Notes under the pieces: model-generated
What the model saw: only the letters and a program-made list of their open reading frames with translations
Told to the model about the DNA's origin: nothing
The model's database searches: none
Program-made: the position numbers and the translations under genes
IMG/VR virus record: IMGVR_UViG_3300005264_000029
Span: 64,001 to 125,063 of that record
Length of the DNA stretch: 61,063 nucleotides
Direction: 5' to 3' (one strand)
DNA from: a virus
Lineage: Duplodnaviria; Heunggongvirae; Uroviricota; Caudoviricetes
Shown here: positions 5,282 through 49,798 of the stretch, one piece after another
Position numbering within the stretch: position 1 is the stretch's first letter
Layout: every line of letters starts with the position of its first letter

Positions 5282-5649
5282 AGTTCTACCTCTGATACAT
5301 CAAGTTCTACATTGCCCTTGGAGATCCATTTAGATTCCTTAAGTTCATATGATTCTTCCAGAATCATTGATTCTTTTTGTGGGTTTATATTAGAACAATA
5401 GAAACAACTTGTTTTAGAATATACTATGAAATATTCTTTTTCTACTTGAAAAAATATAACATCTCTTCCTCTACCAATTACTGTTATAGCCCTACTACTA
5501 ATTACCCCTGTACGTACAGCTTTAATCATTCTTCTTCTTACTTTCGATGTTTCAGTATTATGACCATAATTATCAGTTAATATTGTCTTATATGTCTCAG
5601 GCCTATTATTAAAATCTACAGTATATCCAGGTAAATATACATCTATCAT
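5272..5649 (-). CDS. hypothetical protein
   Basis: 125-aa ORF overlapping both neighbours. Confidence 0.7.
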   Translation of the reverse strand: MIDVYLPGYTVDFNNRPETYKTILTDNYGHNTETSKVRRRMIKAVRTGVISSRAITVIGRGRDVIFFQVEKEYFIVYSKTSCFYCSNINPQKESMILEESYELKESKWISKGNVELDVSEVELCF

Positions 5650-6398
5650 TTGTCCACCAACGATGATGTTTTTTTCAACAATTGTTCTGAATCCTTTAAA
5701 ATCAAATCAAGTTGTTGTTTACTCATATCAACCTTATAAATTCTATCAATTTGTTTTATTACCCTTTGCATTGATAGTGTACCATCTCTTGATATTAGAT
5801 CTTTAAGAGTCATTATTAAAGCTGCTCTCTGGAAATCTTCTTTACTCATTGCATCAATTACGGTATTATCATCATATACATTAGATTCCCTAACTTGTAA
5901 ATATCTAGCATAAACATTCTTAGGTACCTTCGGAACCTTAAATAATTTCCAAAAATTAGGATGACCTGCTAACTTTTTCTCAACCATTTTAGTTGTTGTA
6001 AACTCTGTCCAACTACCTAATTTCTCAAATTTTTTAAGATTCCATACATCACCTGATAAGTTCTTATCCTTTACGAAAATCGATCCTTCTCCTCTCGCAT
6101 GTAAATCTAACCAATAATCTACATATGAATTCAAATACGTTTTATCGAGTTTAGTTACTTTTAGAGGAAAACAAAGGATGTAAAACAGATGCTTTGTCCT
6201 AACTTGCCCCAGAACCTTCTTTAACTCCTTGTTTTCTTTTTTCGACCAATCTTCTGCTGATGCGAAGCGAATTGCCTCATCACAATTATGTACTACCATT
6301 GAATTTGCTACAAAATTATGATTATCAGGAACTCCTATAATATCATAAACTTTAGATTTTTTAGTCCCCTTTGTTATTTTTTTAATTTTAATAAACAT
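5646..6398 (-). CDS. P-loop ATPase, C-terminal half, preceded by a 38-aa split-intein C fragment (IntC 6398-6285)
   Basis: MFIKIKKITK...VYDIIGVPDNHNFVANSMVVHN followed by CDEA (Walker B); probable start ATG 6398 after GGTGATAAAA. Confidence 0.85.
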   Translation of the reverse strand: MFIKIKKITKGTKKSKVYDIIGVPDNHNFVANSMVVHNCDEAIRFASAEDWSKKENKELKKVLGQVRTKHLFYILCFPLKVTKLDKTYLNSYVDYWLDLHARGEGSIFVKDKNLSGDVWNLKKFEKLGSWTEFTTTKMVEKKLAGHPNFWKLFKVPKVPKNVYARYLQVRESNVYDDNTVIDAMSKEDFQRAALIMTLKDLISRDGTLSMQRVIKQIDRIYKVDMSKQQLDLILKDSEQLLKKTSSLVDK

Positions 6399-7785
6399 TT
6401 TTATCACCTTTTTTTAAATTATCTATTGCCCATAACGGTTGTAGATTATTATAATTAAAACATTTAATCTGTTCTTCTTTCTTTGTTAAATTAAAAGAAC
6501 TGCATGGTTTTATATGATCTATGTGCCACTCTCCATAATTTTTCCAATTCATTCCCTCAGTAAATAATTTATTTATATACTCTTTAAATTCAGGAATTGT
6601 GCACCCTAAAAAATCCTTAAGTGATATATCTTTAATCATTCCTTGATCATTTAATGCTAGGGATACTCTTCTTCTAAGGTTCCTTTTTATTTTGTATTCT
6701 GGGTTTGTTTTCATTAATTCTTTATGTTTATTATTTAAATATTTTCTGTGTTTAGTATAGTTGTTTTTTAACCATTTTTTTCGTGTTTCTTTTATTGCTT
6801 CTTTATTATTATCATAATATTTTTTATTTGATATTTTATATTTATCTTTATTTTTTTGATATTCCTTATGTTTTTGTTCTTTATATTTATCAGGATTCTC
6901 AATCGCCCATTTTTGTTTTTTCTTTAATAATTCTTCACTATTCTCTTTTCTATAAATATGTAAATATTTCTTTATTTTTTCTTTATGCTCTAAAGCATAA
7001 CGTTTTAATCCACACTTGCGACAACATACTTTTACTTCTTCTCTTACAGGAATAAACTCTTTATCACATATAACACAAGTTTTGCTTCGTACCTGTATTT
7101 CCTCGTCTTCTGTTAAATCTTTTAATTTTTTATAACCCTTTTTTGTGAGAAACAAATGATTTTCTGTAGCCTTTATTTTTTTACCATTAATCAATTCTAT
7201 TTCGAATACTACTTCTTTTCCGGTCTGAATTGTTTTTTCTGGTTTTTTATATTCGTATCTATCATTTTTTATATTATAAGATAAAACTTCATAATCATTC
7301 CTTCCAACTAAATCTTTTATGCTTTCTGTTTTTTCAATTCCTTCAACCTTTACTTTAATAGATGTATCACCAGACAAACATAAGATAGGACTAAAGGCCG
7401 GAAGTTCCTGAATCAATCTCATAATATCTTCGTTGTTATATGCAATATGTTTCTTTGGGTCAAATCGAATACCTATTAATTTGCACCACGCCCTACACAA
7501 TTGAATTCCTGTGCTGCTCTTGCCCGTCCCCTTATCACTACTTAACAGTAGTAATGTATCATAGTTTGCTAAATTTCTTTGTAAACAATATTTAACAAAT
7601 TGAGAAAACACTCTATACTTTGATTTCTTTTCAGGTTCCGCTGGTTTTAATCGATTCTTTTTATATTCGTGGAATAAATATAAAACTTGTTTATGTGTGA
7701 GATTATCTTTAGGTAAATTATTCTTTTTCATAATTTCCTCAATCACATTAACATCTACATTAGTTAATCCTATTTCATCTACCAT
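6388..7785 (-). CDS. P-loop ATPase N-half (Zot/FtsK-HerA-like, possibly genome packaging) + IntN (from 7380) + fused HNH endonuclease
   Basis: Walker A SDKGTGKS; FSPIL followed by CLSGDT intein block A and KATENHLF block B; terminal EWHIDHIKP..NLQPLW; no intein C-terminal motif in this ORF. Confidence 0.85.
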   Translation of the reverse strand: MVDEIGLTNVDVNVIEEIMKKNNLPKDNLTHKQVLYLFHEYKKNRLKPAEPEKKSKYRVFSQFVKYCLQRNLANYDTLLLLSSDKGTGKSSTGIQLCRAWCKLIGIRFDPKKHIAYNNEDIMRLIQELPAFSPILCLSGDTSIKVKVEGIEKTESIKDLVGRNDYEVLSYNIKNDRYEYKKPEKTIQTGKEVVFEIELINGKKIKATENHLFLTKKGYKKLKDLTEDEEIQVRSKTCVICDKEFIPVREEVKVCCRKCGLKRYALEHKEKIKKYLHIYRKENSEELLKKKQKWAIENPDKYKEQKHKEYQKNKDKYKISNKKYYDNNKEAIKETRKKWLKNNYTKHRKYLNNKHKELMKTNPEYKIKRNLRRRVSLALNDQGMIKDISLKDFLGCTIPEFKEYINKLFTEGMNWKNYGEWHIDHIKPCSSFNLTKKEEQIKCFNYNNLQPLWAIDNLKKGDKNVY

Positions 7786-8733: not shown

Positions 8734-10809
8734 TCATCCTTTTAAATTATAAACCGGTATTAATCTATGTTCTATTTCTACGGTTTCTTTAATATGTTTC
8801 ATTACTACATCTACAGATTTATATGCAAATGGACTTTCATCAATTCTTTTTTCATCTACACATGTACTATAAACATCTTTCATAGTATCTTTAAATTGAT
8901 CCATAGTAATAACACCATCAACTAATTGTTGTTTCATCTTACTTCTACTACCAGATCTTCCAGCTCCATGAGGTGCTGAATAATTATAATCCTTTATACC
9001 CTTACCTTTACCAAGTATTGACCCTTCAGCCATATTAAATGGTATGATTACATCTTGATTTTTATGTGCTTGGATTGCTCCTTTTCTTACAATGTTATCG
9101 TCTGCAATGAAATTATGTATAGATTCAATTAATTTAGTATCATCAAATTTAATTGATACTCTTTCTAATATATGTTGAATCATAATTCTTCTATTGATGG
9201 ATGCGTATTGTTGAGCTAACTTCATGTAATGTAAATATCTATCTCCACCAAATGTTTTTGGTAAAAATTCCATACCTTTAGGTGTAGAAATTCCAGCAGC
9301 TTTACAAAATTCTACCGCCTTCTTTTGATAATAATTAGCAATAGTTAATCCTATATTTCTAGATCCTGAGTGCACAATTAAATATGATTCATCTGTTTGT
9401 TCTGATTTAGCTATTTCTATAAAATGATTACCTCCTCCCAGTGTTCCTAATTGTAATTCACTATATTTATACTTAGTTTTTGTTTCCTCAAAGAACCTTT
9501 CTAATTCTTTAACAACTTTTTTATCCTTCATAGATAAAAACTTAGAGGCTTTATGTCTACTATTGAATCCTAAAGGAACTGAATCTCTAATTCTTTTATC
9601 AATTTCTTCGAAATTTAAAACACCTATTTGATCTTCATGTCCTAAGGTGTGCGCTACTACACCACAGTTACCAGTAATAAATATATTATTATTTCTTCTT
9701 GCAACAAAATACCCTGTGGGTACAGTAAAACAATACTTCTTTCCATCTATAGCTTTTATTTTTTTAATTTCATTATTATAGCCAACCATATTATTTTTTG
9801 TAGGTGTTACAACATAACAATCGTTCCAATTTTTCTTATCTGATTTGCTAATACTTATTCCTGCTCTAATGTTATTTGAACTAAATGCGAATTGTATAAT
9901 CTCAGCATTTAGTTTATTTGTTGAACTGAAATAAGATCTATATCCTTTATGTCCATCCCATAATAAACATTCTTCAGATATAATTTTTAATTGATTTTTA
10001 GTAGCATTCCAATATTTTGATAGATCTTTGTTAAACTTTTTATCGATAAAAAAATAAATATGTGATGTTTTATCCTTTCCTATTGTTTCTTTAAATTCAA
10101 TATTTAAAACATTTAATAATTCTTTAGCTCTGTTAATTTTTCTTTCTTTTTTTAAATGTAAATATATTTGATGTGTTGTTTCTCTTTTCCATTTTATACA
10201 TCCATCAGCAGAAATCATAATATCTAATTTAATTTCATCATCAGTTAAATCAATACCTTTATTATCTATTTCAAACGATGCTTTAAAACTATAATAACCA
10301 CTATCTAATTTTAAATTTAGAAAGTCTTTAGGTAACATATTAATTATTTTATATCCTTTCGATTTATATCCTTTAAATACTAACATTTTATGTTCATCAC
10401 TAACCATTTGATCTAATCCTTTAGAATTTTTAAAATGATAAAAGTAATCACAATCTTTAACTATATAATTTATAGGTTCTATAAAGCTGGCTTCATCAGT
10501 ATCTTTATTATATTGTAATACTAAATCATCTCTGTTATATTCAGAAATTTTCTTCCAACCTTTTTTTGTTAAAAATTCAGTATCTTTATCCAGACACCCA
10601 ATATCAACTCCAATAATATTTGGAATTATCCTATCGTTAAACCTGCCTGTAAATCCTATCACACACCCCGCACCTTGATGAACATCTGCCATTATAGCAA
10701 CTAAACCATGAATAGCTGGACTATTCTTAATTAATTTTATTTGATCTAATGCTCCTGATTCTACATCATCTGCATATATTTTTACATATGTATTTTCTTT
10801 ATTTTCCAT
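8734..10809 (-). CDS. rtcB: RtcB RNA 3'-phosphate ligase with a 310-aa intein (10596-9667) carrying a LAGLIDADG-like domain
   Basis: ADVHQG, GVDIG/CG, GTLGGGNHFIE, HSGSR, HNF, RKGA, SAPHGAGR, DESPFAYK; intein CLDKDT...ITGN then C. Confidence 0.95.
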   Translation of the reverse strand: MENKENTYVKIYADDVESGALDQIKLIKNSPAIHGLVAIMADVHQGAGCVIGFTGRFNDRIIPNIIGVDIGCLDKDTEFLTKKGWKKISEYNRDDLVLQYNKDTDEASFIEPINYIVKDCDYFYHFKNSKGLDQMVSDEHKMLVFKGYKSKGYKIINMLPKDFLNLKLDSGYYSFKASFEIDNKGIDLTDDEIKLDIMISADGCIKWKRETTHQIYLHLKKERKINRAKELLNVLNIEFKETIGKDKTSHIYFFIDKKFNKDLSKYWNATKNQLKIISEECLLWDGHKGYRSYFSSTNKLNAEIIQFAFSSNNIRAGISISKSDKKNWNDCYVVTPTKNNMVGYNNEIKKIKAIDGKKYCFTVPTGYFVARRNNNIFITGNCGVVAHTLGHEDQIGVLNFEEIDKRIRDSVPLGFNSRHKASKFLSMKDKKVVKELERFFEETKTKYKYSELQLGTLGGGNHFIEIAKSEQTDESYLIVHSGSRNIGLTIANYYQKKAVEFCKAAGISTPKGMEFLPKTFGGDRYLHYMKLAQQYASINRRIMIQHILERVSIKFDDTKLIESIHNFIADDNIVRKGAIQAHKNQDVIIPFNMAEGSILGKGKGIKDYNYSAPHGAGRSGSRSKMKQQLVDGVITMDQFKDTMKDVYSTCVDEKRIDESPFAYKSVDVVMKHIKETVEIEHRLIPVYNLKG

Positions 10810-11006: not shown

Positions 11007-11078
11007 TGATGTATAACAGAATCAAACTGTTTCTAATGGGGTTGGAATCCATCGTACAAATCATTATACTAATACATC
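11007..11078 (-). tRNA. tRNA-Trp(CCA), atypical T loop
   Basis: acceptor GATGTAT/ATACATC, loop TT-CCA-AC, T arm AACAG/TTTGATT/CTGTT. Confidence 0.7.
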
Positions 11079-11083
11079 TATAT

Positions 11084-11154
11084 TCTCGCAGCCAGTTCTG
11101 ACCTGGCACCAACAGGGTCACGACCTGTTATGCTGCCGTTAACACTATACGAGC
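11084..11154 (-). tRNA. tRNA-His(GTG)
   Basis: ACAGG TC-GTG-AC CCTGT; T arm GCCAG/CTGGC. Confidence 0.75.
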
Positions 11155-11155
11155 T

Positions 11156-11845
11156 TTAATTAATGTTTTTTAATTTATGATGTAATTTAACATGATCTAT
11201 TCTGGACATTAACTGTAAATTTTCTAATTTATTATTATGCTTATTACAATCTATATGATGTACTACTTCGTTATAATTTAATTTTCTTCCTATTTTTTGT
11301 TCCATTAAATATCTGTGTTCATCCATAGCTATACCATTTATTTTTATACCCTTATAATATTTTAACGGTAATTTATCAAAACATGATATACATAATATTG
11401 TTTTATCAATAGTTGATATATATTTATGACTATCAATAATATATTTATTATTGTATGCCCTCCATATCTTATTTATATCATTTTCTTTAAGAACACTATT
11501 ACATATATTACATTTACATTTAGTTCTATAAAATAATATTATATTATTGGCTTTACATAACTCAGTCTGATAATATGCTACTGTTCTATTATATGTACTA
11601 CCGATATTTATATTAATTAATTTATCTCTTAATGCTTTACCCTTATCAGATTTTTCAAATTTTAACATCGATTGTCTTGTTTTTTCTTTTGTTTCTTTAC
11701 TTGGTACTCTACTATTAGCACATTTTCTAGAACAACTTATTCCAGGTTTAGCATGTTCTGCACCACACTTCTCACATTTTTTTATACATATTTTATCATT
11801 CTTATTATGATATGTATTACATTTCTTACATCTAATCGAACTCAT
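11156..11845 (-). CDS. HNH homing endonuclease (HNH_3 type); probable start ATG 11845 because the track start lies inside tRNA-Gln
   Basis: DEHRYLMEQKIGRKL..NEVVHHIDCNKHNNKLENL; N-terminal CxxC motifs. Confidence 0.85.
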   Translation of the reverse strand: MSSIRCKKCNTYHNKNDKICIKKCEKCGAEHAKPGISCSRKCANSRVPSKETKEKTRQSMLKFEKSDKGKALRDKLININIGSTYNRTVAYYQTELCKANNIILFYRTKCKCNICNSVLKENDINKIWRAYNNKYIIDSHKYISTIDKTILCISCFDKLPLKYYKGIKINGIAMDEHRYLMEQKIGRKLNYNEVVHHIDCNKHNNKLENLQLMSRIDHVKLHHKLKNIN

Positions 11846-11887
11846 ATAAATAATTAGGGTGCGATTCTTTATAAGTTTATGTATTAA

Positions 11888-11960
11888 TACTCCTAGGCCG
11901 ATTCGAACGACCGTCTCAGCCTTCAAAGGGCTGCTAATTTGTCCGCTATTATATAGGAGT
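11888..11960 (-). tRNA. tRNA-Gln(TTG)
   Basis: CAGCC CT-TTG-AA GGCTG; TTCGAAT. Confidence 0.9.
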
Positions 11961-11996
11961 GTAAAAGGATTCTAAAACCCTATATACGTTGTTGAG

Positions 11997-12068
11997 CGCC
12001 TGAACTGTGATTCGAACACAGATTACTACCTTGACAGGATAGTGTCTTAACCGTTAAACGAAACAGGC
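11997..12068 (-). tRNA. tRNA-Asp(GTC)
   Basis: CTATC CT-GTC-AA GGTAG; TTCGAAT. Confidence 0.9.
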
Positions 12069-12072
12069 AATA

Positions 12073-12146
12073 TAGTCGCACCAGGACTTGAACCTGGAAT
12101 CACTGCCTTATCAGAGCAGCACCCTAACCAATTAGGCCATACGACT
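12073..12146 (-). tRNA. tRNA-Ile(GAT)
   Basis: CTGCT CT-GAT-AA GGCAG; TTCAAGT. Confidence 0.9.
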
Positions 12147-12152
12147 GTTAAA

Positions 12153-12224
12153 CGACCCATAACGGAATCTAACCATTTTTTCTGGATTAGAAGTCCAGTG
12201 TCCTCTACAGTAGACGAATGGGCC
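12153..12224 (-). tRNA. tRNA-Arg(TCT)
   Basis: CTGGA CT-TCT-AA TCCAG; T loop TTAGATT. Confidence 0.8.
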
Positions 12225-12228
12225 AATA

Positions 12229-12301
12229 AGATGATATCCAGATTTAAACTGGAACAAAACAGATTCGAAATCTGTGGCACTATTCATTATGCTATATCAC
12301 C
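12229..12301 (-). tRNA. tRNA-Arg(TCG)
   Basis: GGTGATA/TATCATC; ACAGA TT-TCG-AA TCTGT; T loop TTTAAAT. Confidence 0.75.
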
Positions 12302-12305
12302 AATA

Positions 12306-12376
12306 CGCTCCTATGGGGAATCGGACCCCAGCTTCTAGGTCGAAAGCCTAATGTCCTTCCATTAAACGATAGGAGC
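12306..12376 (-). tRNA. tRNA-Glu(TTC)
   Basis: GCTCCTA/TAGGAGC; TTAGG CT-TTC-GA CCTAG. Confidence 0.85.
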
Positions 12377-12381
12377 TAAAA

Positions 12382-12451
12382 TGCACTTACTGAGATTCAA
12401 ACTCAGATTGCCAACTTGGAAGGATGGTTGCTTATCATTAGTCATAAGTGC
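12382..12451 (-). tRNA. tRNA-Gly(TCC)
   Basis: GCACTTA/TAAGTGC; CCATC CT-TCC-AA GTTGG. Confidence 0.75.
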
Positions 12452-12486
12452 AATATAGTATTGTTACTACTTTTTATTATCTTAAA

Positions 12487-12558
12487 CGGAATACCTTGGA
12501 TTCAAACCAAGATCGAAACGTTCCAAACGAAACATGCTTATCATTACACCAATACTCC
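12487..12558 (-). tRNA. tRNA-Pro(TGG), weak anticodon stem
   Basis: GGAGTAT/GTATTCC; loop TT-TGG-AA closed by only 2 good pairs. Confidence 0.55.
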
Positions 12559-12688
12559 ATAATGATTAAGAAAAATAAAAAATATAGTAAAATTTATTGT
12601 TGATGATCGGGTTGCCACTGGCCTCTCCCGATCCTAGAAATAATTCTTTGACGTTCAACAATATTTGAAATCATAATATAGTATAGAG

Positions 12689-13358
12689 TTAATTGTTTAT
12701 AAACCTTTCGGTTTTCTTTTGATATTCTACCTTATTTATATATTGATAAATCCCATTCATTCCAGAGTATTCAAACTTCTCAAACTCTTTAAACTTAGAT
12801 TTATTATATGTATGCATATATTTTAAGAACCTATTTTTATATACGAAGTTTATTGCGAGCTTAATATCTCTGTTTTCTATCGGTTTAAGATATTCATTTA
12901 TTCTTTTATACCATTTAATAATCTCTTGATCTCTTATTCTTGAGAACCTTTGAGCGCTCTGACCCCCAGTCTTATGCTGACCTGGTACTTCTGAGTGTAG
13001 ATTAAATATTGTTTTTATCTCACCAGTAGAATAAATGTCGCAGCATATTGCATCAGTAAGATCTACAACCATTATTGTATATACAATAGTTCGAGTACTA
13101 TCAAATTTTAATAGTTCTTTACCGCAATAATAGATTTTCTTTTTATTATAATAAGGTTTAACTTCTAATGATTGATTATCCCAATATAGTGATATTCCAG
13201 AAATAGTTTTGTTCGTGCTAAAGATAAGTCTTAATTCTATTTAATCCATCAAGAGTATTATTTCTCGTTGCTCTATCTTTAATATTACTTGCTGATTTAA
13301 TCTCATTAGTAATATTAAATGCTTTACTTTTTTCAGGAATATGTATTGTTATAGCCAT
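12689..13358 (-). CDS. aRF1/eRF1-like class-1 peptide chain release factor (N+M domains), requiring a +1 frameshift at CTT TAG (13223-13218); about 222 aa
   Basis: Frame 0: MAITIHIPEKSKAFNITNEIKSASNIKDRATRNNTLDGLNRIKTYL then TAG. +1 frame open from 13222: STNKTISGISLYW...IYYCGKEL...VPGQHKTGGQSAQRFSR. The NIKS-like, YxC and GGQ motifs are colinear. Confidence 0.9.
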
Positions 13359-13377
13359 TTTTATTATTTGATTGAAA

Positions 13378-13448
13378 GGATAATATCGGAATCTAACCGA
13401 TTACTCTTGGGTTGCAACCAAGTGTCTTTGACATTTGACCAATCATCC
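13378..13448 (-). tRNA. tRNA-Cys(GCA)
   Basis: CTTGG TT-GCA-AC CCAAG; GGATGAT/ATTATCC. Confidence 0.8.
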
Positions 13449-13462
13449 AATATGGGTTTAAT

Positions 13463-13885
13463 TTATTTTTTACATAACTTACATCTTTCACTATATCCAG
13501 ACCATGTACGACCTTCTTTAAAAAATTCGGATATGTTTTTTACTATATTACATTTAGTGCATTTATAATGAGTATCATCTATTCTTCTACATTTTCTAAT
13601 ATCATTAGAACGAATTTTAGCATATTTATTAGACATATCCTTTAATTTATTTTTATCCCATGTTGCAAAACTGGCCATATCGCCATTTTTATGATGTAGT
13701 TTTACATGTTTAGATCTATCAATAACTTCTAAATTTTCAACTCTATTATCTTTTTTATTACCGTTAATATGATGTACTATTTCATTAAATTTTAATATTC
13801 TTCCTAAATATTTTTGCATTATTAATCGATGTTCATCTATAGTTTCATTTCTATTTATTCTAATTTTTTTATATATAGCTGTCAT
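13463..13885 (-). CDS. HNH homing endonuclease (HNH_3 type)
   Basis: [34 protein letters not shown]; C-terminal CxxC. Confidence 0.85.
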
Positions 13886-14073
13886 TTTTATCTTAATGAT
13901 ACAAACATGTTCATCATTACTTCAGATGGTCTTTTATTTTGTGCTTTACATTCCTTTAGAAATTTTATTGTTTTATCTTTTCTTTCAGGATTTATCTTGT
14001 TCTCAAATACTTTTCTAAATTCTGTTAAGAACCCATCAGTTTTTTCTAGTACTACTATTCTTTCCATATTTTA

Positions 14074-14149
14074 TACCTCTGATTTGATTTGAACAAATGT
14101 CCTTTGGAGTATGAATCCAACGTCCTAGACCTGACTAGACCACAGAGGT
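14074..14149 (-). tRNA. tRNA with CAT anticodon (Met or Ile2)
   Basis: ACCTCTG/CAGAGGT; TTGGA TT-CAT-AC TCCAA; TTCAAAT. Confidence 0.85.
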
Positions 14150-14154
14150 ATGAA

Positions 14155-14228
14155 TGAACCCGAAGAGATTCTAACTCCTGACTTATGCCTTAAAAGGGCA
14201 CCACTCTAACAGACTGAGTTACGAGTTC
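14155..14228 (-). tRNA. tRNA-Lys(TTT)
   Basis: GTGCC CT-TTT-AA GGCAT. Confidence 0.85.
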
Positions 14229-14273
14229 GAAAGACCGTATACATGATGGGGATTACCACATGCATTCCGGCAA

Positions 14274-14341
14274 TATACGCAGTAGGGGTTGCTCCTACTT
14301 TACCTCGGTGTAAGCGAAGTATCCATCTATTGGTTACGTAT
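14274..14341 (-). tRNA. tRNA-Val(TAC), shortened D arm and atypical T loop
   Basis: CTTCG CT-TAC-AC CGAGG; GTAGG/AGCAACC/CCTAC. Confidence 0.65.
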
Positions 14342-14349
14342 GTGAAAAA

Positions 14350-14424
14350 TGGACTGTGAGGAACTCAAATCCTCATTCTTCTCAGTGCAAGTGAGAGGCA
14401 GTATTTCAATTGTGCTAACAGCCC
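14350..14424 (-). tRNA. tRNA-Ala(TGC)
   Basis: GGGCTGT/ACAGTCC with G3:U70; TCTCA CT-TGC-AC TGAGA. Confidence 0.85.
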
Positions 14425-14429
14425 ATGAA

Positions 14430-14503
14430 TGCACTCATCAAGAGTTGAACTGGAAACCTCAAGTTTACAAGACTTGCGCGCTAATCCATTGCGCCATGAG
14501 TGC
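14430..14503 (-). tRNA. tRNA-Thr(TGT)
   Basis: CAAGT CT-TGT-AA ACTTG. Confidence 0.9.
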
Positions 14504-14511
14504 TTTATTTT

Positions 14512-15138
14512 TTAATTTGTTTTTAATATTTTTAAATACTTATATGTAGATGATCTACTTATATTATATTTTTCAGATATTTGAATTCTTGTTAGATTAT
14601 TTTTGATTCCTTCTTTAATTAAATCTATATTTATTTTTTTAAGCATTGAATAATTTTCTATCTTATTTAAATAATTATATACTGTTTTATTATTTAAATT
14701 ATATTTTTTAGCTATCTTATACCCTGAAAGATTATCTTTAATTCCTTGTTCTATTAAATCTTTATATTTACTATCTATTTTATTATTACTTTTATTATGA
14801 TGTTTGTAATAATTTACTACACATGTATGAGAGCAAAAAATATATCTTTGATGTTTGTTTTTATATTCTATTTCTTTTTTTCTAAATTTTATATTAGTTG
14901 AACAATTCTTACATTTTACAGATGAATGTTTATTTAAATCTATAGTATTGTGTAATTCTGAATGTTCTTTTCTTGACATAAGTTCTAAATTATCTATGTT
15001 ATTATTGAATTTATTCCCATCTTTATGATGTACTACTTCATTATATGATAATTTTCTTTTTAAAATGTTTTCAATAATATATCTATGTTCGTGTTTATAT
15101 ACACCATCTACTTTTATCCATTTATATGTTTTTATCAT
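14512..15138 (-). CDS. HNH homing endonuclease with C-terminal HTH repeats
   Basis: HEHRYIIENILKRKL..NEVVHHKDGNKFNNNIDNL; two HTH-like segments. Confidence 0.85.
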   Translation of the reverse strand: MIKTYKWIKVDGVYKHEHRYIIENILKRKLSYNEVVHHKDGNKFNNNIDNLELMSRKEHSELHNTIDLNKHSSVKCKNCSTNIKFRKKEIEYKNKHQRYIFCSHTCVVNYYKHHNKSNNKIDSKYKDLIEQGIKDNLSGYKIAKKYNLNNKTVYNYLNKIENYSMLKKINIDLIKEGIKNNLTRIQISEKYNISRSSTYKYLKILKTN

Positions 15139-15176
15139 TTTATTTATTTTGGTAATTAATTTTTAAATTTCTTGAA

Positions 15177-15250
15177 CACCTTTGACAAGACTTGAACTTG
15201 TAGCAATACGATTAACAGTCGTACCTCAATACCTGGATGAGCTCAAAGGT
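15177..15250 (-). tRNA. tRNA-Asn(GTT)
   Basis: TACGA CT-GTT-AA TCGTA. Confidence 0.9.
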
Positions 15251-15465
15251 AATATTGTAGAAATAAATTTTAATTAAAATAGTAATAATTATTACATATA
15301 AAATTAGATTTGGCCGTACAGACCATTGTTTTCTTTTTTGTAATAACCATTTTTTTATTAGTGCGCACCATGGCGACTTGAATCATCTAAAGACCTCGTA
15401 AGATCTATAGGGATCATGTTATATATAGTATAGACTTAATTGTTTATAAACCTTTCGTTTTTTAA

Positions 15466-15549
15466 CGTTATGCACCGGATTTGAACCGATGTGTCCAAAG
15501 GACATTGGTTAGCAACCAATTGCAATTGACCTGACTCTGCTAGCATAAC
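15466..15549 (-). tRNA. tRNA-Ser(GCT)
   Basis: ATTGG TT-GCT-AA CCAAT; long variable arm. Confidence 0.9.
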
Positions 15550-15553
15550 AATA

Positions 15554-15634
15554 TATACGCACCAGGATTTGAACCTGGGAACATTTAAGATACGGCTCTA
15601 AACCGCACGCTGTTGACCACTTAGCTATGCGTAT
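15554..15634 (-). tRNA. tRNA-Leu(TAG)
   Basis: TGCGG TT-TAG-AG CCGTA; long variable region. Confidence 0.85.
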
Positions 15635-15639
15635 TAAAA

Positions 15640-15721
15640 TATCAGGAGCCAGATTCTAACTGGCGATGCTATAAAGCATGGATCTTAAGTCCATTGGATT
15701 CATACACTCTCCCATCCTGAT
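15640..15721 (-). tRNA. tRNA-Leu(TAA)
   Basis: ATGGA CT-TAA-GA TCCAT; long variable arm. Confidence 0.85.
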
Positions 15722-15737
15722 CTTATATAATTTGAAA

Positions 15738-15819
15738 CGCTACAAGTGCGACTCGAACACACATATCTAAAAGAAACCTATTTTCAAGACAGGCGGACAA
15801 CCAATTGTCCAATTGTAGC
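15738..15819 (-). tRNA. tRNA-Ser(TGA)
   Basis: CCTGT CT-TGA-AA ATAGG; long variable arm. Confidence 0.9.
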
Positions 15820-15929
15820 ATAAGCTTAGAAAATTATAAGGATGATAATGATAATAAACTCAAAGAATTACAGGAACTGAGATTATTATTTTGATACATA
15901 ATATAGTATAGAGTTAATACTTTATAAGT

Positions 15930-18906: not shown

Positions 18907-20523
18907 TCATCCTACGATTCTCTCAGTATACTTTTTAGCTATCTTCATAATACGTTCACGTTTATCAAGGAAATACTTTTCTTCAAAGGTATCCTGCACT
19001 GTTATGTAGTATACCTTGGAATCATGATCCTTCTTTCTGAGGCTACGGCCGAGCCGCTGTAGGAATTGTCGCTCCGTACTGTTCTGGGCCATAATTATCG
19101 AGCAGTCTATTGCGGGAACATTGAAGCCCTCGTCCAAAATTAGACTCGCCAAAACGACCTCCAGAGCACCGGATTCAAAATCACGTAAGATCTCGGACTG
19201 CTTTGCTGAAGAAATATCGGAATTCATTATATCACATTTAACATCGTCTTCTTGTAGTTCCCAATACAGATCACGAGACATAGCATTTAATTGATTGAAC
19301 ACTAATATCTTTGATCCTTTATTTTCTGCAATGATTCCTCTAGCTACTACAGATTTCTGGGAGTAATTAGATATTAATTTCTTCCTGTCCTGCATTAACT
19401 TAAGTACTGCAGCATGTGCTGGGTTACTTCCTTTTAACTTAGATAAATCCATTCCACCAAGTGAATGAATTGCGGCTGTTAATCTCTGAGACATATTTTC
19501 ATATTGATCTCTTGTCTCTTCATCCATAATAATACTTATATGATAAAACTCGAACTGATTAAGTATTCCATCATTGAGAGCCTCTTCAATATCATAAACA
19601 AATATATTATAATCAAAACAGGCTTTAATTTTTATATGATTCCTATCTTGTCTTTCAAGAGTTGCAGTAAGTCCAATCTTATATGGTTTATCTATTGAAA
19701 TCAATTTCATATAATTAGCTGTTCCATAATTGTGAAGTTCATCATATATAATACAATCAAAAGAATCTATGATACCTGAATCGACTAGATTTTTCATAGA
19801 TTGAATACTTACCATGGTAATCTGAGAAAACTCTCTAGTAAACCCATTATACAATCCAATCTTATCTATTCCAATACCGAACTTATATAAATCCTCAAGC
19901 CACGCTTGTTCTAGTATAACATTCTTTGGTCCAACAATTAATATCTTCATATGTGGATCTTTTTCAATTAGTTTCTTAATAACATAAATTGCGAATGCTG
20001 TCTTCCCTGAATTTGAAACTATGATACTGTTTGCTATAAAATTATGATTGTCATGTACATTAACAATATCGTATGTTTTCTGTTTACCCTTTGGTGTTAT
20101 TGATTTTACTTGTGAAGCATTAATTAATAAGTTATCTTTATAGACTCTTATGATTTGACCAACTTCTAAATCTTTAGTCTTTGTGTATTCTCTTATTTGA
20201 TTTAGGAATGGATGATCTTCTGTAGCTTTTACTTTCATACCATTATTAAGTTCAACTTCATATACTTCAGCAATCTTAGAAAATACTGCACCATCAGATT
20301 CTTTATATTCAAATTTCATCGATTTGATATTAAACGATAAGACTTCTATTCCTTTATTACCCACAAAATCTTTTATAGGTCTAACACCATATTTTTTAGT
20401 ATGAATTAATGTATCACCTGTTAAACAACCTGTCGCAACATTATAGATAGATCTAGGATTATCTTTAAAAAATTCATATGCTCTTGCTTGCCATCCACGT
20501 AATTTTATTTCAAACTCATTCAT
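18907..20523 (-). CDS. SF2 DExH helicase (XPB/Rad25-like) with a 139-aa mini-intein (20427-20011) in Walker A
   Basis: ATG/[CLTGDT...IVSN]/SGKT, IYDELH, GLTAT, EGFNVP, QRLGRSLR. Confidence 0.9.
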   Translation of the reverse strand: MNEFEIKLRGWQARAYEFFKDNPRSIYNVATGCLTGDTLIHTKKYGVRPIKDFVGNKGIEVLSFNIKSMKFEYKESDGAVFSKIAEVYEVELNNGMKVKATEDHPFLNQIREYTKTKDLEVGQIIRVYKDNLLINASQVKSITPKGKQKTYDIVNVHDNHNFIANSIIVSNSGKTAFAIYVIKKLIEKDPHMKILIVGPKNVILEQAWLEDLYKFGIGIDKIGLYNGFTREFSQITMVSIQSMKNLVDSGIIDSFDCIIYDELHNYGTANYMKLISIDKPYKIGLTATLERQDRNHIKIKACFDYNIFVYDIEEALNDGILNQFEFYHISIIMDEETRDQYENMSQRLTAAIHSLGGMDLSKLKGSNPAHAAVLKLMQDRKKLISNYSQKSVVARGIIAENKGSKILVFNQLNAMSRDLYWELQEDDVKCDIMNSDISSAKQSEILRDFESGALEVVLASLILDEGFNVPAIDCSIIMAQNSTERQFLQRLGRSLRKKDHDSKVYYITVQDTFEEKYFLDKRERIMKIAKKYTERIVG

Positions 20524-34730: not shown

Positions 34731-37700
34731 ATGCTTAAATTAAGTTTCTCACAAATAAAATTATATAAAAGTTATCCTCTGGATTATTTTTATAGATATG
34801 TACAAAGGCTTCCTGAAAAAGATACTGAAACAAAGTGGTGCGACTTTGGACTTGGTGTACATGAAGTATTAGAGGATTATTATTCTGGAAAAAATAACGA
34901 TTATAGATCTAATACTATTAAAGCATATGACAAGTATAAGTTAAAAGGAAGAATGAAGTTAGAGGACTTCAAGAAAAATATTCTAAATGGTATAAAACTT
35001 GCATGGAAGACAACAGATCTAGAAGAAGAAATGTTTGTCGATGTATATGATGATGTTGGGTTTGTTGGATACATAGATGTACTCGATAAAGAAAAACATA
35101 CTATCCTTGATTGGAAAACTGGAACATACACAAAGGATAAAGAAGATGATTATAAATCTCAATTATTATGTTACGCTTGGATGTATCATAGGAAATATAA
35201 TATTGTACCTAGTGAGTGTTGTTTGTATTTTACAAAACAATCAAAGCTTATTCCATTTACATTTACACTTGAACAAATTAATCAGTTTGAGAACTATGTA
35301 AAAAAGATTGCGCAGGAAATTAAGTACAAGAGAATTAATCATACGAAAGCAGAGCAGTGGGGACATGAATTAGGATTCTTTTCTGGTTATCATTACTTGG
35401 AGAACCTTCCGACATTAAAGTTCCTAATAGAGATCAGAAACAGCTTCTGTTATTTGGGGGGATCTACATCGCCTTTATTATTACAAGGCTTGAAAAAGAA
35501 TTTCGCTGTAGACCACCAATCAAAATTCTTTATGCAAAAGAAAGTACTTGAGCGATATGGTAAAACAAAATTCTATGATGACATAGGTACAGTATATTTA
35601 TTTAATGAACGTCAGAAAAAATTCCCACTTGGAATGCTTAATGATGTAAAACAACAGTTAAAGGAATATGCAGAATATAAGAATTCAAAACATGAAGTAA
35701 CAGTTGTTGATCTAAGGGATAAAAAGATTCTTAATAAAAAATTAGGAATTATGCCAAACAAATTACAAGGTGGAATAGTTCTTCGTGATTATCAATTGAA
35801 TGCAGTATATGCATTTATAGTTAATCAAGGAATAGGAACGCTTGAGATTGGTACAGGTGGAGGTAAAAGTTTTCTGACAGCTGAAGTAATTAGAAGATTA
35901 GATACTCCAACATTATGGATTATTAATCAGAAAGAATTATTATATCAAACAAAAGAAGCATTTGAAAAATCACTTGGAATCCCTATTGGAGTTATTGGTG
36001 ATTCAAAAATAGATTTTCAAAATGTAACAGTTGCTACAGTTCAAACACTTGCAAAAAAAGTAAAGGATATGAATAGTGAAATGCTTGCATATCTTGCAGG
36101 AATTAATTTAGTAGTGATAGATGAGTGTTTATATGGAAATACAAAAATTCGTATGGGTGATGGTACTGAAAAAACTATTAAAGAAATATATGAATGTAAA
36201 GAAGAACAATATGTAATGTCATATAATGAAGATAAACAAATATTCGAAAGTAAAAAAGTTATTCGTAAAATGAAAAATAGTATGAATGATAAATGGCATA
36301 GTTTTAAAGTTAAAGACGAACTTGGAGACGAACATAAAATAATAGTTACAGATAATCATAAAATATGGACATCTGACGGATATAAGCAAGTAAAAGATTT
36401 AAATAGTAATGATATACTAAAGGTTTATTTAGAACCTATAAAATTTAAATGTAAATATTGTGATAAATTTTTTACTGGTAAACCATATAGTAAACATATA
36501 TTAATTCATAAAAACCCAGAAGCATGTTCTAATGGTGGAAAGGCTGCAACAAAAATATTAAAAGAAAAATTAAAAAATAAAAAATTTCATAAAAAATATT
36601 GTGCCAGTATAAAAAAAGGAATTTCTGTAGCTCAAAAAAGTGAGCATTATTGGGAAGCATATAAAAAAATGGGAGAGGGACGTAGAGGTAAAAATAATCC
36701 AATTTTTAATAGTCCTGAAACAATACTAAATATGATTAAAACAAAACAAAAACAATTTGCAGCAAAAACATTTGATGAACAACAAAAACAAATAAAAAGA
36801 TTTATGAATTCACCTGGTGGACAATGTAAAGGACCTACAAAATGTGAGAAAATTATCATGGATATGAAGATTGATAATCTAGAATATACAGGTAACGGAA
36901 GGAAAATTTATAAATTTAATAATTGGAAAGGTGATGTAAAGAAAAGAAAATTTAAAGTTCCTGATTTTAAAGTTAAAAATGAAGAAAAAGTAATAGAAGT
37001 TGGAGATTTTGAATACTGGCATAATAAAAAAGAAACAAATGAAGTTATAAAAAATTATGAAAATATAGGAGTTAAATGTTTGTATTTAGATGAAAAAGAA
37101 ATATTTAACGATTATGAATTATCGAAAAAAAAAATAGAGAAATTCTGTTATAATCATACTGCAAGATTAATTAAGAAGCAAAAACAAAATGGATTTATAG
37201 ATAAAGAAATAGCTAAATATAAATATAATATAGAAGTTGAAGATAATCATAATTATATAGCAAATAAGATATTAGTATCAAATTGTCATAATTCTTCATG
37301 TACTACATATGAAGAAGTATTTAAAGCATTATCAAATACTAAGTATAGATTAGGAACTACTGCAACAGCTTTTCGTGAAGACAAACAAGAACGAAGAATG
37401 TATGCACTTACTGGATCTATAGTATGTAAAATAGATTCTGAAGAATTAATTAAAAAAGGATTTCTTATGAAACCCATAATTAAGTTTTTTAAGGTTAAAG
37501 AATCTAATGTTACTAAAATTAACTATGCATTACTATCTACTGAAGAAAGACATTCAGCAAAGGATAGTGAATATGCTAGAGAATATGAAGAAGGTATAGT
37601 ATATAATCCTGAGAGGAATGAATTCATAAAAGAGTTTGTTGGAAAGGAAGTTAATTCAAAGATATTAATAATTGTTAAATCTATTGAACATGGAGAATTA

Positions 37701-38060
37701 CTTAATATGAATATTGAGGATAGTTTATTTATTCATGGTAGTTTGAACAAAAAAGTTAGAAAGGAATATTTTGATATACTTAAATCACCAAAACCATGTG
37801 TTGTTATTGCAACAATTAAGATTGCATCAGAAGGACTTGATGTACCAGATTTAAATATATTAATTAATGCTGCAGCTAATAAATCTGATAATAGAACAGT
37901 TCAAGCACTTGGTAGAATACTTAGAAAACATGAATCTAAGACTCAGGCCACATACATAGATTTTATAGATAAATCAAATCACGGAGCTCAACATAGTTGG
38001 CAAAGGGTAAAAGCTTTTAAAGCTCAAGGACATAAGGTAAGTATCATAGATATCAAATGA
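34731..38060 (+). CDS. PD-(D/E)XK (Cas4/RecB-like) nuclease fused to an SF2 helicase; 386-aa intein (36126-37283) with C2H2 finger and Vsr/DUF559-like nuclease
   Basis: LSFSQ, GLGVHEVLE, GYIDVLD, ILDWKTG, QLLCYA; LRDYQ, GTGGGKS, VIDE/[CLYG..VSN]/CH, GTTAT, EGLDVP, QALGRILR. Confidence 0.9.
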   Translation: MLKLSFSQIKLYKSYPLDYFYRYVQRLPEKDTETKWCDFGLGVHEVLEDYYSGKNNDYRSNTIKAYDKYKLKGRMKLEDFKKNILNGIKLAWKTTDLEEEMFVDVYDDVGFVGYIDVLDKEKHTILDWKTGTYTKDKEDDYKSQLLCYAWMYHRKYNIVPSECCLYFTKQSKLIPFTFTLEQINQFENYVKKIAQEIKYKRINHTKAEQWGHELGFFSGYHYLENLPTLKFLIEIRNSFCYLGGSTSPLLLQGLKKNFAVDHQSKFFMQKKVLERYGKTKFYDDIGTVYLFNERQKKFPLGMLNDVKQQLKEYAEYKNSKHEVTVVDLRDKKILNKKLGIMPNKLQGGIVLRDYQLNAVYAFIVNQGIGTLEIGTGGGKSFLTAEVIRRLDTPTLWIINQKELLYQTKEAFEKSLGIPIGVIGDSKIDFQNVTVATVQTLAKKVKDMNSEMLAYLAGINLVVIDECLYGNTKIRMGDGTEKTIKEIYECKEEQYVMSYNEDKQIFESKKVIRKMKNSMNDKWHSFKVKDELGDEHKIIVTDNHKIWTSDGYKQVKDLNSNDILKVYLEPIKFKCKYCDKFFTGKPYSKHILIHKNPEACSNGGKAATKILKEKLKNKKFHKKYCASIKKGISVAQKSEHYWEAYKKMGEGRRGKNNPIFNSPETILNMIKTKQKQFAAKTFDEQQKQIKRFMNSPGGQCKGPTKCEKIIMDMKIDNLEYTGNGRKIYKFNNWKGDVKKRKFKVPDFKVKNEEKVIEVGDFEYWHNKKETNEVIKNYENIGVKCLYLDEKEIFNDYELSKKKIEKFCYNHTARLIKKQKQNGFIDKEIAKYKYNIEVEDNHNYIANKILVSNCHNSSCTTYEEVFKALSNTKYRLGTTATAFREDKQERRMYALTGSIVCKIDSEELIKKGFLMKPIIKFFKVKESNVTKINYALLSTEERHSAKDSEYAREYEEGIVYNPERNEFIKEFVGKEVNSKILIIVKSIEHGELLNMNIEDSLFIHGSLNKKVRKEYFDILKSPKPCVVIATIKIASEGLDVPDLNILINAAANKSDNRTVQALGRILRKHESKTQATYIDFIDKSNHGAQHSWQRVKAFKAQGHKVSIIDIK

Positions 38061-47254: not shown

Positions 47255-48025
47255 ATAAAAATGAAATTATATATAAAATGTGACAATTGTGAAAAAGAAT
47301 GCGAGTTAAATTCTGAATTATATTTTACAGGATATTTAGATGAGAGTATTGAGGTTAATGCTTATGAAATATGTTGTAGCATAAAATGTTTGGAAGAAAT
47401 TAAAAATTAAAATGAAATTATATATTGTTACAATAAAAGTAAAACATGGATTATCGCATAACCCAAGAAATAAGATTACTGGAGGATGCCCACAATTATG
47501 GGGATCTGAATGTAGTGATGTGACCGGAGAACATCATAGTTTTATTCATATCGCAGAAGATATTGATAGTGTTAAAAAACAATTAAATCATCTGCGAATA
47601 ACGAGAATTGAAGAAGCTAGATTCATGAATGGATATACAGTTGAAACAGAAAGACTTATAAATACTTAAGTGTTTATATATTCTATTACAATGAAATGGA
47701 TAGATAACTTAAGGATAAAATATGGAACAAAATATGTACTCGATGATGTGGTAGTTAAGTATAAACTATTTGATAAGAATGAACCAAAGTATTATTTAAT
47801 AGTTTTACATAATGAAGAAACAGGCAAACAGAAAATAATCAAATCTATTACAGATAGATTTTGTGATACAATGCATTGTTGGATTTGAGTGTAGTGGAAA
47901 TGAGGATTTAAAAATGAAAGAAAGCAGAGTAAAAGAATTAAGAAAGAAAGTTAGTAGATTGCAAAGTAAAGTGCAAAAATTACATTTTGATATACAGGAT
48001 ATTATGAGATATATTGATAGAGACG

Positions 48026-49798
48026 ATGAAAGTAATAAATAATCATAAAGAAATAGCAAAGGAATGTTTAAAAGATTGTCTAGTAGTAGATATTGAAACA
48101 TCATCAGAGTATGATATTAAAGAGTTTGATAATTATGTAAGAACAGCAGTAGTTAAATGGATAGGATTTTATTCATATACTTCAGGAAGATATTATGAAA
48201 TAGATTGCATGAAAACTTCTAAACTTAAAATACAAGAATTTTTTAATGCTCACAAAACATTAGTAAGTTTTAATGGAATAGAATTTGATATACCTGTTCT
48301 AAAAAATAATGGTATGCTTCCTGAAAGATATTTTTCGCAAGTAGATTGTAATGTTATATTGGGAAATAATCTAATTAGGGGTCATAAGAATAGAGGGATG
48401 CTTATGGGTTATAAGTTTCCAAATAATAAATTATCCACCATGGCGAAAGTTATGAAGCTTGAAACTATGAAAGGTAGTATCTCATACGATGTATTTAAAA
48501 AGAATGAATGGAATGAAGAAGAAACAAAGGACATTAGAAAATACCTAAGAGGTGATGTAGAAGTTACGAAACAAATGTTTGATAAACTATATTCTTTCTG
48601 GGAACCATTTACAGAATTTATATCTGAAAAGAATGTGAAACAATGGAATTGGTTAAGATCATCATCAGGATCTTTGAGTTATAAGGTATTGTGTAATTAT
48701 AGTAAACTGCCTGAAGAGTATGGTGAGTATACTGAAACTAAAGAAGAGATGGGTGGATTAGTATTATTGCCATCAGGTGCAGAATATAAAGACGTGTGGT
48801 ATATGGATTTTGCATGTTTGCCTACAGGTACAAAAATAAGAAGACAACGTGAAGATAAAAAAAAACCTGGTAATAGAGGGAATAAATATGATACTAATAT
48901 TGAAGATATTAAATCTGGAGATATTATATGTGGTGAAAATTTTGTAAACACAAAGGTCTCAAATGTACAATCAAAGGATTATGATGGGGAACTTTACGAA
49001 TTTGAATTAGAAAATGGAAAGGTATTATCTTGTACACCAGAACATAAGTTTCCTATAATACGCAATAGAAAAAGAATAGTTGCTGAAGCAAAGGATATTT
49101 TAGAAACAGATGAATTTATATCTACATTTAGTAAGTTCGAGAATATTAATCCTAATTATATATATGGTAGAGAAGTTAGAATGTGCACTATTTGTGGAAC
49201 GGAATTCGAAATCGATAGTAGAATGAAACAAAAAACATGTGGTAATGAGGAATGTGTTAATACATCTAGAAGTATACATGGAAAAATACATGGTTGCAAC
49301 ATAGGTAAGAATAAATATAATTGTAAACATTTGAAAAGGTTATCTGACGAAAGAACAGATGTTCCTAGAAAAGAAGAACATAAACAAAATATATCAATAG
49401 GTACTAAAAATGCCATTAAATTAATTCCACAATATGAAAAAATGAGATGGATGCAGAAACACATGCGTTCACAGAAATACAATACCGATACAGGAAGATT
49501 TGTGTATAATGATATAAATTTTAAAAGTAACTGGGAAATAATTACTGCAAAATATCTTGATAAAGCGAACATAAAATGGAGGTATGAACCAACAGGGTTT
49601 TTATTGTCAGATGGAAAGTATTATTATCCTGATTTTTATTTACCTGAATATGATAAATGGGTTGAAGTGAAGGGATACATGTATGATCGTGGGAGAGAGA
49701 AAATAAAAAAATTCACAGAAGAACATAAAGATTTATATTTACTAAACACATTAGATAAAATAAAAAATATTAGTAAGGAGAGCGTTAAAAAATGGTAA
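48026..49798 (+). CDS. polB: family B DNA polymerase N-half (3'-5' exonuclease) + IntN (from 48815) + fused PD-(D/E)XK-type endonuclease
   Basis: VVDIET, FNGIEFD, YLRGDV, MGGLV, YMDFA followed by CLPTGT; CTPEHKF; terminal FKSNWE..YEP...YYPDFYL...VEVKGY; probable start ATG 48026 (track start 48014). Confidence 0.9.
   Translation: MKVINNHKEIAKECLKDCLVVDIETSSEYDIKEFDNYVRTAVVKWIGFYSYTSGRYYEIDCMKTSKLKIQEFFNAHKTLVSFNGIEFDIPVLKNNGMLPERYFSQVDCNVILGNNLIRGHKNRGMLMGYKFPNNKLSTMAKVMKLETMKGSISYDVFKKNEWNEEETKDIRKYLRGDVEVTKQMFDKLYSFWEPFTEFISEKNVKQWNWLRSSSGSLSYKVLCNYSKLPEEYGEYTETKEEMGGLVLLPSGAEYKDVWYMDFACLPTGTKIRRQREDKKKPGNRGNKYDTNIEDIKSGDIICGENFVNTKVSNVQSKDYDGELYEFELENGKVLSCTPEHKFPIIRNRKRIVAEAKDILETDEFISTFSKFENINPNYIYGREVRMCTICGTEFEIDSRMKQKTCGNEECVNTSRSIHGKIHGCNIGKNKYNCKHLKRLSDERTDVPRKEEHKQNISIGTKNAIKLIPQYEKMRWMQKHMRSQKYNTDTGRFVYNDINFKSNWEIITAKYLDKANIKWRYEPTGFLLSDGKYYYPDFYLPEYDKWVEVKGYMYDRGREKIKKFTEEHKDLYLLNTLDKIKNISKESVKKW

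Follow-up and report, generated by a model that had tools for sequence, protein, structure and literature searches.

Previous studies showed that the eRF1 homologues of Mimivirus (R726) and Megavirus (mg280) are expressed through stop-codon readthrough together with a +1 frameshift, located at CUU UAG C in the former and at CUU UAA C in the latter (PMC3521657). Jeudy et al. 2012 demonstrated the R726 shift by mass spectrometry in E. coli and read it as autoregulation of the RF2 kind (PMC3521657). Gating of a release-factor gene by a +1 slip, a classic form of translational feedback, was previously known from bacteria (RF2) and, once, from these giant viruses of amoebae, and the CUU-UAG-C device on a factor of the aRF1/eRF1 type is already published (PMC3521657). 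A 2021 review of archaeal recoding gives very few cases of frameshifting and none in a release factor (PMC8211752), and in the literature on viral aRF1 we found no account of the family of short release factors described here.

The DNA analysed in this study (the window) is a stretch of 61,063 nucleotides forming the latter half of an IMG/VR virus record that is 125,063 bp long and has direct terminal repeats (DTR) of 87 bp. A sequence-only reading of the window had described a 46-codon open reading frame carrying SASNIKD and ending TAT CTT TAG C, with a +1 frame open through YYCGKEL into GGQ, the two giving one colinear release factor of about 222 residues. We found the short frame at that place, and the remainder of the layout was borne out, the joined protein being 222 aa exactly (Table 1). 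By sequence inspection ORF1 consists of 46 codons and TAG without any second stop, its 3' end reads ...ACT TAT CTT TAG C, and its product contains KSASNIKD, the translation ending ...EIKSASNIKDRATRNNTLDGLNRIKTYL. When CTT-T is read as one step, the two frames are joined into a colinear protein (P0003) with the junction ...IKTYL/STNK.... Readthrough of the TAG, or a recoded TAG, was ruled out because frame 0 meets TAA 13 codons further on and homology continues in the +1 frame exactly at the stop; there was no suppressor tRNA among the 20 tRNA genes of the neighbouring array. When the whole genome was scanned for further NTT-T-stop sites flanked by long open reading frames, ordinary gene junctions were all that appeared besides this gene.

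Table 1. Coordinates of the release-factor gene and of neighbouring features (positions in the window).
Feature	Position	Strand	Remarks
ORF1, frame 0	13218..13358	(-)	ATG at 13358; start of the predicted release-factor N domain, including E19 and NIKD (13286-13275)
Shift site TAT CTT TAG C	13217..13226	(-)	E-site TAT, P-site CTT, A-site TAG, then C
Shift-site codons	TAT 13226-13224, CTT 13223-13221, TAG 13220-13218, C 13217	(-)	
ORF2, +1 frame	12689..13219	(-)	AGC after the slip to TAA (12691-12689), frame open from 13222; rest of the N domain and M domain, without C domain; YYCGKEL 13132-13112, GGQ 12967-12959
tRNA-Cys(GCA)	13377..13448	(-)	3' end 19 nt upstream of the ORF1 ATG
tRNA array	11007-15820	(-)	20 genes, 17 by ARAGORN and 3 more by Rfam; HNH genes interspersed
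tRNAs found by Rfam and missed by ARAGORN	12487-12558, 12382-12451, 11083-11154	(-)	12382-12451 reads as tRNA-Gly(UCC)
tRNA-Leu(UAG)	15554..15634	(-)	virus-encoded; candidate decoder of the CTT P-site codon
RtcB RNA ligase with LAGLIDADG-type insertion	8734..10809	(-)	PF01139, 8.2e-57; about 1.9 kb downstream, same minus-strand block
Genes bearing inteins or LAGLIDADG insertions	5646-7785, 18907-20523, 34731-38060, 48014-50997, 8734-10809		

The gene product is predicted to be a two-domain "mini" aRF1/eRF1 composed of N and M domains, because it matched Pfam PF03464 eRF1_2 over residues 93-211 of the joined protein (43.6 bits, cut-off 27.1, E 4.8e-11), was colinear in alignment with cellular aRF1 across both domains, and belongs to a family of which one modelled member matches eRF1 N+M in fold. 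For the last point, the AlphaFold model of an in-frame homologue (P0010, 212 aa, mean pLDDT 90.2) had as its best match the ribosome-bound, accommodated eRF1 5lzu_ii (TMq 0.75, rmsd 4.2, about 240 alignment columns, N+M). The release-factor identity assigned from the letters alone was supported by domain and fold. The ORF1 product matched the N-termini of cellular aRF1 and of in-frame homologues position by position, an agreement that, like the shared break site in 18 other genes, goes well beyond chance, and P8, E19, A23, N25, I26, R32 and L46 were invariant in that alignment; across the whole protein the columns invariant with aRF1 were E19, A23, N25 and I26 (the NIK of NIKS), Y76 and C78 (YxC), and GGQSA, the last being invariant among 27 family members. 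NIKS is changed to NIKD relative to cellular aRF1, and the F of YxCxxxF to L. Compared with aRF1 the protein lacks the first approximately 35 residues (helix 1 and the equivalent of the GTS loop), a 14-residue hairpin of the N domain and the entire C domain; the sequence-only reading had not noticed that the C domain and the GTS-loop region are missing. Pfam eRF1_1 and the C domain PF03465 gave no match in the window's protein, which ends about 10 residues past the M domain, whereas cellular relatives extend about 150 residues past that point in the alignment.

A PHROGs search with the joined protein and with each half gave no family, and tblastn of ORF2 against 50,697 phage records gave no match. 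Among 5.8 billion proteins searched there were about 40 close relatives (45-58% identity), followed by cellular aRF1 proteins of about 365 aa, one of which was named Woesearchaeota. Most other database entries of the family were calls of ORF2 only (157-178 aa), and one member is publicly annotated as a 157-aa "hypothetical protein / eRF1 domain-containing protein" that covers ORF2 only; as public annotation calls the ORF2 fragment only, the mini-factor family is systematically mis-annotated. Five deeper-branching relatives (L179, L181, P0088, P0090 and P0100) were 245-295 aa long with a short remnant after the M domain; P0090 was an in-frame form, and L179 and L181 carried the shift site. Lengths thus form an apparent reduction series, from three-domain cellular aRF1 (approximately 365-420 aa) through these relatives to the mini factors of 210-222 aa.

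We found that the +1 shift was needed in all of the homologous genes inspected at the DNA level (19/19; 16 of the close family and three from distant loci with 26-32% identity), which came from 18 metagenomic loci representing independent assemblies and studies and having protein identities of 26-58%. At every site (19/19) an NTT codon is followed by the T of the stop, so that a +1 slip lands on TTT. The P-site codon was CTT in 16 genes, ATT in two and TTT in one; the stop was TAG in 16, TAA in two and TGA in one; and the base after the stop was C in 15, T in three and A in one. The E-site codon of the 16 close-family genes was TAT in 12 and TAC, TGT, TTT and GGT in one each, and in the three distant loci it was TAT, TGT and TGT. 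These conserved-site counts overstate independence, because the homologues are related. The same caution applies to the codon preference: close-family P sites that encode Leu used CTT in 13 of 13 cases, compared with 15% CTT among the 227 other Leu codons of the same genes (naive p approximately 3e-11, overstated since the genes are related).

Synonymous codons near the site vary freely; for the conserved Gly of T-x-x-G-L, approximately 8 codons before the stop, all four Gly codons occur. ORF1 has 44-46 codons in the close family, the exceptions being 38 (L176) and 59 (L180), and in L176 the site is displaced 7 codons upstream as GGT ATT TAG C. The three distant relatives, two of which are approximately 290 aa long with a remnant of the C-terminal region, carry TAT CTT TGA C, TGT CTT TAG C and TGT CTT TAG T at the same alignment position. 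Two paralogues on one 5.3-kb contig (L017, 119-760 and 1804-2435; 87% nucleotide identity) are both shifted, at CTT TAG C and CTT TAA A. At least 10 further database proteins have +1-frame N-termini (..IFS.., ..TFS.., ..FFS.. or ..IFN..) that would fit CTT-TAG or CTT-TAA. The homologues therefore break at one conserved NTT-T-stop site and not at random positions, while synonymous sites vary, and a programmed +1 frameshift in this viral release-factor gene is strongly supported by the comparison. The RF2-like CUU-U/stop design with UAG on an archaeal-type factor, as put forward in the sequence-only reading, has the support of the homologues; it is less new than that reading implied, since Mimivirus R726 already has it.

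Two members showed additional stops. In L012 (about 1617-2232) the shift at CTT TAG T is accompanied by an internal TGA in place of the Gly of YxCG (TAT TGC TGA AAA), which may reflect decay of this copy, an error in sequencing or a second recoding. In L001:3001-3471, on a 44-kb IMG/VR contig (36% identity), the frame is unchanged and an in-frame stop occurs soon after NIKD (...VVEGL*KIRANL...), which could be a readthrough site or a broken gene.

In-frame forms of the gene also exist. The N-termini of three close relatives (P0005, P0010 and P0018) align with ORF1, and their junction (...YLS.N...GIS...) aligns gap-free with the predicted transframe product. In the in-frame genes available as DNA (L173 and L174) the junction reads TAT CTT AGC and TAT CTT AAA, exactly one T fewer than in shifted genes, so the predicted slip product is the in-frame protein. 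In a maximum-likelihood tree, the root of which is not established, the in-frame forms fall within groups of shifted genes, and at least four state changes are required by supported branches. These forms, like the displaced, paralogous and distant sites above, favour selection for the shift itself. The pattern suggests that the shift is kept across a deep and widespread metagenomic family, with repeated secondary loss by single-T deletion.

The signal itself appears to be compact. No GGAGG-like or Shine-Dalgarno (SD) element was present in about 15-20 nt before the window's site, as had been noted before, and no conserved SD-like element was present upstream of the site in 15 aligned homologues. 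A consensus RNA structure computed for 15 sites aligned from -45 to +75 contained 0 base pairs, the single-sequence fold of the window was no better than shuffles (z +1.39), and the linker directly 3' of the site was variable in length and sequence. Therefore, the signal reduces to the (T)AT CTT TAG C block, a +1 recoding site that is free of stimulators and validated by phylogeny. Of the 97 ORFs in this genome that reach 100 aa or more, 10 end in TAG and none (0/97) in TAG-C, and thus the shift uses the least-used termination context of the genome.

From these observations we infer ribosomal slippage, and we consider it probable that the gene encodes a mini class-I factor gated by a programmed +1 ribosomal frameshift of the RF2 type, with its synthesis coupled to slow termination. 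A ribosome would read the 46 codons of ORF1 until its P site holds CUU paired with peptidyl-tRNA-Leu and its A site holds UAG-C. Quick termination would release a 46-residue peptide; if termination were slow, the tRNA-Leu would re-pair from CUU to UUU, placing AGC (Ser) in the A site, and translation would proceed in +1 until the 222-residue factor (...KTYL-STNK...) is complete. Since slipping would compete with termination at the stop, more of the factor should be made at low total release-factor activity (host aRF1 and viral factor) and less at high activity, the logic also followed by bacterial prfB and Mimivirus R726. Such a design would amount to negative feedback, in which the product would itself terminate at the shift-site stop, and, as the sequence-only reading proposed, it might sense host aRF1. 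Members of the family differ in having TAG, TAA or TGA at the site, as an omnipotent reader of the aRF1 type would allow. The product, having neither C domain nor GTS-loop region, may behave differently from an ordinary stop-codon-specific factor. Were it not stop-specific, it could not feed back by its own activity, although host aRF1 would still compete at the stop.

The possible lack of stop specificity bears on the strongest alternative, in which the +1 shift is programmed without serving as a feedback sensor and delivers either a fixed low yield or two products, the 46-residue NIKD peptide and the full protein. We regard this as unlikely, although more plausible than the alternatives below. 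A factor without C domain and GTS region might recognise stop codons poorly, and the conserved length of ORF1 in the close family, two exceptions apart, also speaks for it; however, that conservation is explained by the part ORF1 plays in the N domain, a slip at an A-site stop inherently competes with termination, and the rarest stop context is the choice expected of a termination-sensitive switch. The termination-coupled shift is our preferred reading.

A split gene, in which ORF1 and ORF2 are made as two associating polypeptides and ORF2 arises by re-initiation near the stop, seems very improbable. Gene callers do place TTG or ATG starts in the +1 frame just upstream of the junction in several homologues, but no +1-frame start is conserved there (the codon covering the site is ATC, ACC, GTC, ATT, TTA or GTA), and the window's first ATG in the +1 frame is residue 96, inside the M domain. 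The conserved NTT-T is moreover a slip site and not a start, and the in-frame relatives fuse both parts with exactly the predicted junction.

We give still less credence to a pseudogene, or to a sequencing or assembly indel that added one T to the TTT run. The one-T difference of the in-frame relatives and the additional internal TGA of L012 would suit such an origin, but the same break recurs across the 19 genes and 18 independent loci at all levels of identity, and both halves are under protein-level conservation. The indel, on which the sequence-only reading had wanted a check, also failed to appear in a second assembly of the reads: Logan contigs matched 12500-13600 with 0 differences and 0 gaps at approximately 18x word depth. 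These contigs were assembled independently and derive from the probable source run, so that they are not an independent sample; the public sequencing runs holding the stretch amount to a single DNA run from a marine sediment metagenome, and no RNA run is listed among them. Because the Logan re-assembly is identical, an assembler-specific indel is excluded, and on the combined sequence evidence the gene is neither an assembly error nor a dead gene. Transcriptional slippage or RNA editing that deletes one U from the mRNA would yield the same protein and is just as hard to credit, since the run is three T (four in L014), far below known polymerase slippage tracts, and the conserved stop and C would have no role.

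The release-factor gene lies within the tRNA array of the minus strand. Its ORF1 ATG, separated from the preceding tRNA-Cys by positions 13358-13377, has no Shine-Dalgarno motif, unlike most homologues, in which GGAGG precedes the start by 6-9 nt; tRNA processing may yield the mRNA with a short leader. The tRNA at 12487-12558, some 130 nt past the stop codon of the release-factor gene, has an atypical anticodon arm: in the Rfam register (anticodon UUG) three of its pairs are non-standard, whereas another register gives a stem of 5 bp and a loop of 8 nt. This tRNA may be degenerate or unusual. Intein or LAGLIDADG insertions were present in many replication and repair genes of the window (an ATPase, two helicases, a PolB-like exonuclease/polymerase and RtcB). 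The association with tRNA arrays recurs in eight related loci, including L180 with 17 tRNAs immediately upstream, and RNA ligase or MJ1316 domains were found near three relatives. In one contig, labelled as a giant-virus MAG and resembling viruses of this family (L002), ARAGORN called two 87-nt tRNA-like genes with four-base anticodons (tgta and taca; L002:790-876 and L002:1813-1899), which sit in an array beside a frameshifted release-factor gene whose ORF2 ends early, at 114 codons.

We infer an archaeal host, which we consider likely. Relatives have GGAGG-type ribosome-binding sites before ORF1, which indicates that the hosts are prokaryotes. In three related loci the gene for tRNA-Tyr measures 71-75 nt, the size of the class-I form present in archaea and eukaryotes; in bacteria, tRNA-Tyr carries a long variable arm. 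Every named relative of the virus's clamp-loader subunit is an RFC small subunit from archaea (Nanohaloarchaea, Nanosalina and Methanomassiliicoccales), and an archaeal-type S-layer domain gene lies beside one relative. The host lineage is not established, because the searches pointing to DPANN were biased by length limits and by a DPANN-seeded alignment. Pfam and PHROGs searches on approximately 30 large ORFs revealed no capsid, portal or terminase, and a search of the virus genome for the NCLDV capsid family had no match, a result that is uninformative because its control likewise matched nowhere.

Relative to the published device, the new elements are a probably archaeal virus lineage, the two-domain architecture and a shift approximately 30 residues upstream of the mimivirus one; the heptamer is identical, but it has been recruited at another codon of this gene family by another, apparently archaeal lineage of viruses. 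A natural two-domain aRF1 could further be used to test the need for the C domain and the GTS loop in stop recognition and release. More speculatively, and with considerably more doubt than belief, the mini aRF1 might be an ancient core part of an archaeal-virus translation-maintenance module that also comprises tRNA arrays and RtcB or RNA ligases. Under this conjecture, loss of the aEF1-alpha-binding C domain would yield a GTPase-independent release or rescue factor acting on host ribosomes in infection, and the CUU-UAG-C switch would gauge how much termination capacity the host has. This switch would also represent a third independent invention of the RF2-type device, and no conserved +1 recoding signal would have been defined before it for archaeal ribosomes.

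Among known systems, the bacterial PrfH-RtcB rescue-and-repair pair offers a likeness in having a truncated release-factor homologue near RtcB (PMC6514570); PrfH belongs to a different RF superfamily, whereas the viral mini factor retains stop-codon-reading motifs, and its linkage to RtcB is loose. The nearest cellular sequences found were the aRF1 proteins of DPANN archaea (Woesearchaeota/Nanoarchaeota, approximately 365 aa, 27-36% identity), which share E, NIK, YxC and GGQ; their genes are in frame and encode three domains, while the viral factor is shortened to two. Bacterial prfB (RF2), with UAU CUU UGA C, shares with the window the short ORF1, the CUU-U, the C after the stop and the E-site UAU, and the distant member L179 carries the exact RF2 decamer TAT CTT TGA C. 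The in-frame variants scattered through the phylogeny of the mini-factor family resemble the scattered loss of the RF2 shift in bacteria. RF2 differs in its unrelated fold, in its internal Shine-Dalgarno approximately 3 nt upstream of CUU and in its UGA, whereas the present family has an aeRF1 fold, no SD and mostly UAG; unlike the ORF1 of RF2, that of the window has 46 codons encoding a functional part of the protein.

The closest likeness is to Mimivirus R726 and Megavirus mg280, in which a viral ORF of the aRF1/eRF1 type is likewise cut by a stop and continued in the +1 frame; the Mimivirus heptamer CUU UAG C is identical to that of the window, and neither has an SD stimulator. A giant-virus contig (L003) has the shift site CAG TAT CTT TAG C. 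The Mimiviridae are giant viruses of amoebae whose eRF1 genes keep the C domain and need an upstream readthrough, whereas the window virus has a 125-kb DTR genome, SD-led genes and an archaeal-type RFC, and its two-domain gene would need a single recoding event. When both are aligned with cellular aRF1, the shift of the window falls at the end of the helix after NIKS, and that of the Mimiviridae lies downstream of it by approximately 30 residues, past the NGLV..AG strand and its loop. The same heptamer is therefore found at two codons of homologous genes, approximately 30 positions apart, which points to convergence or relocation.
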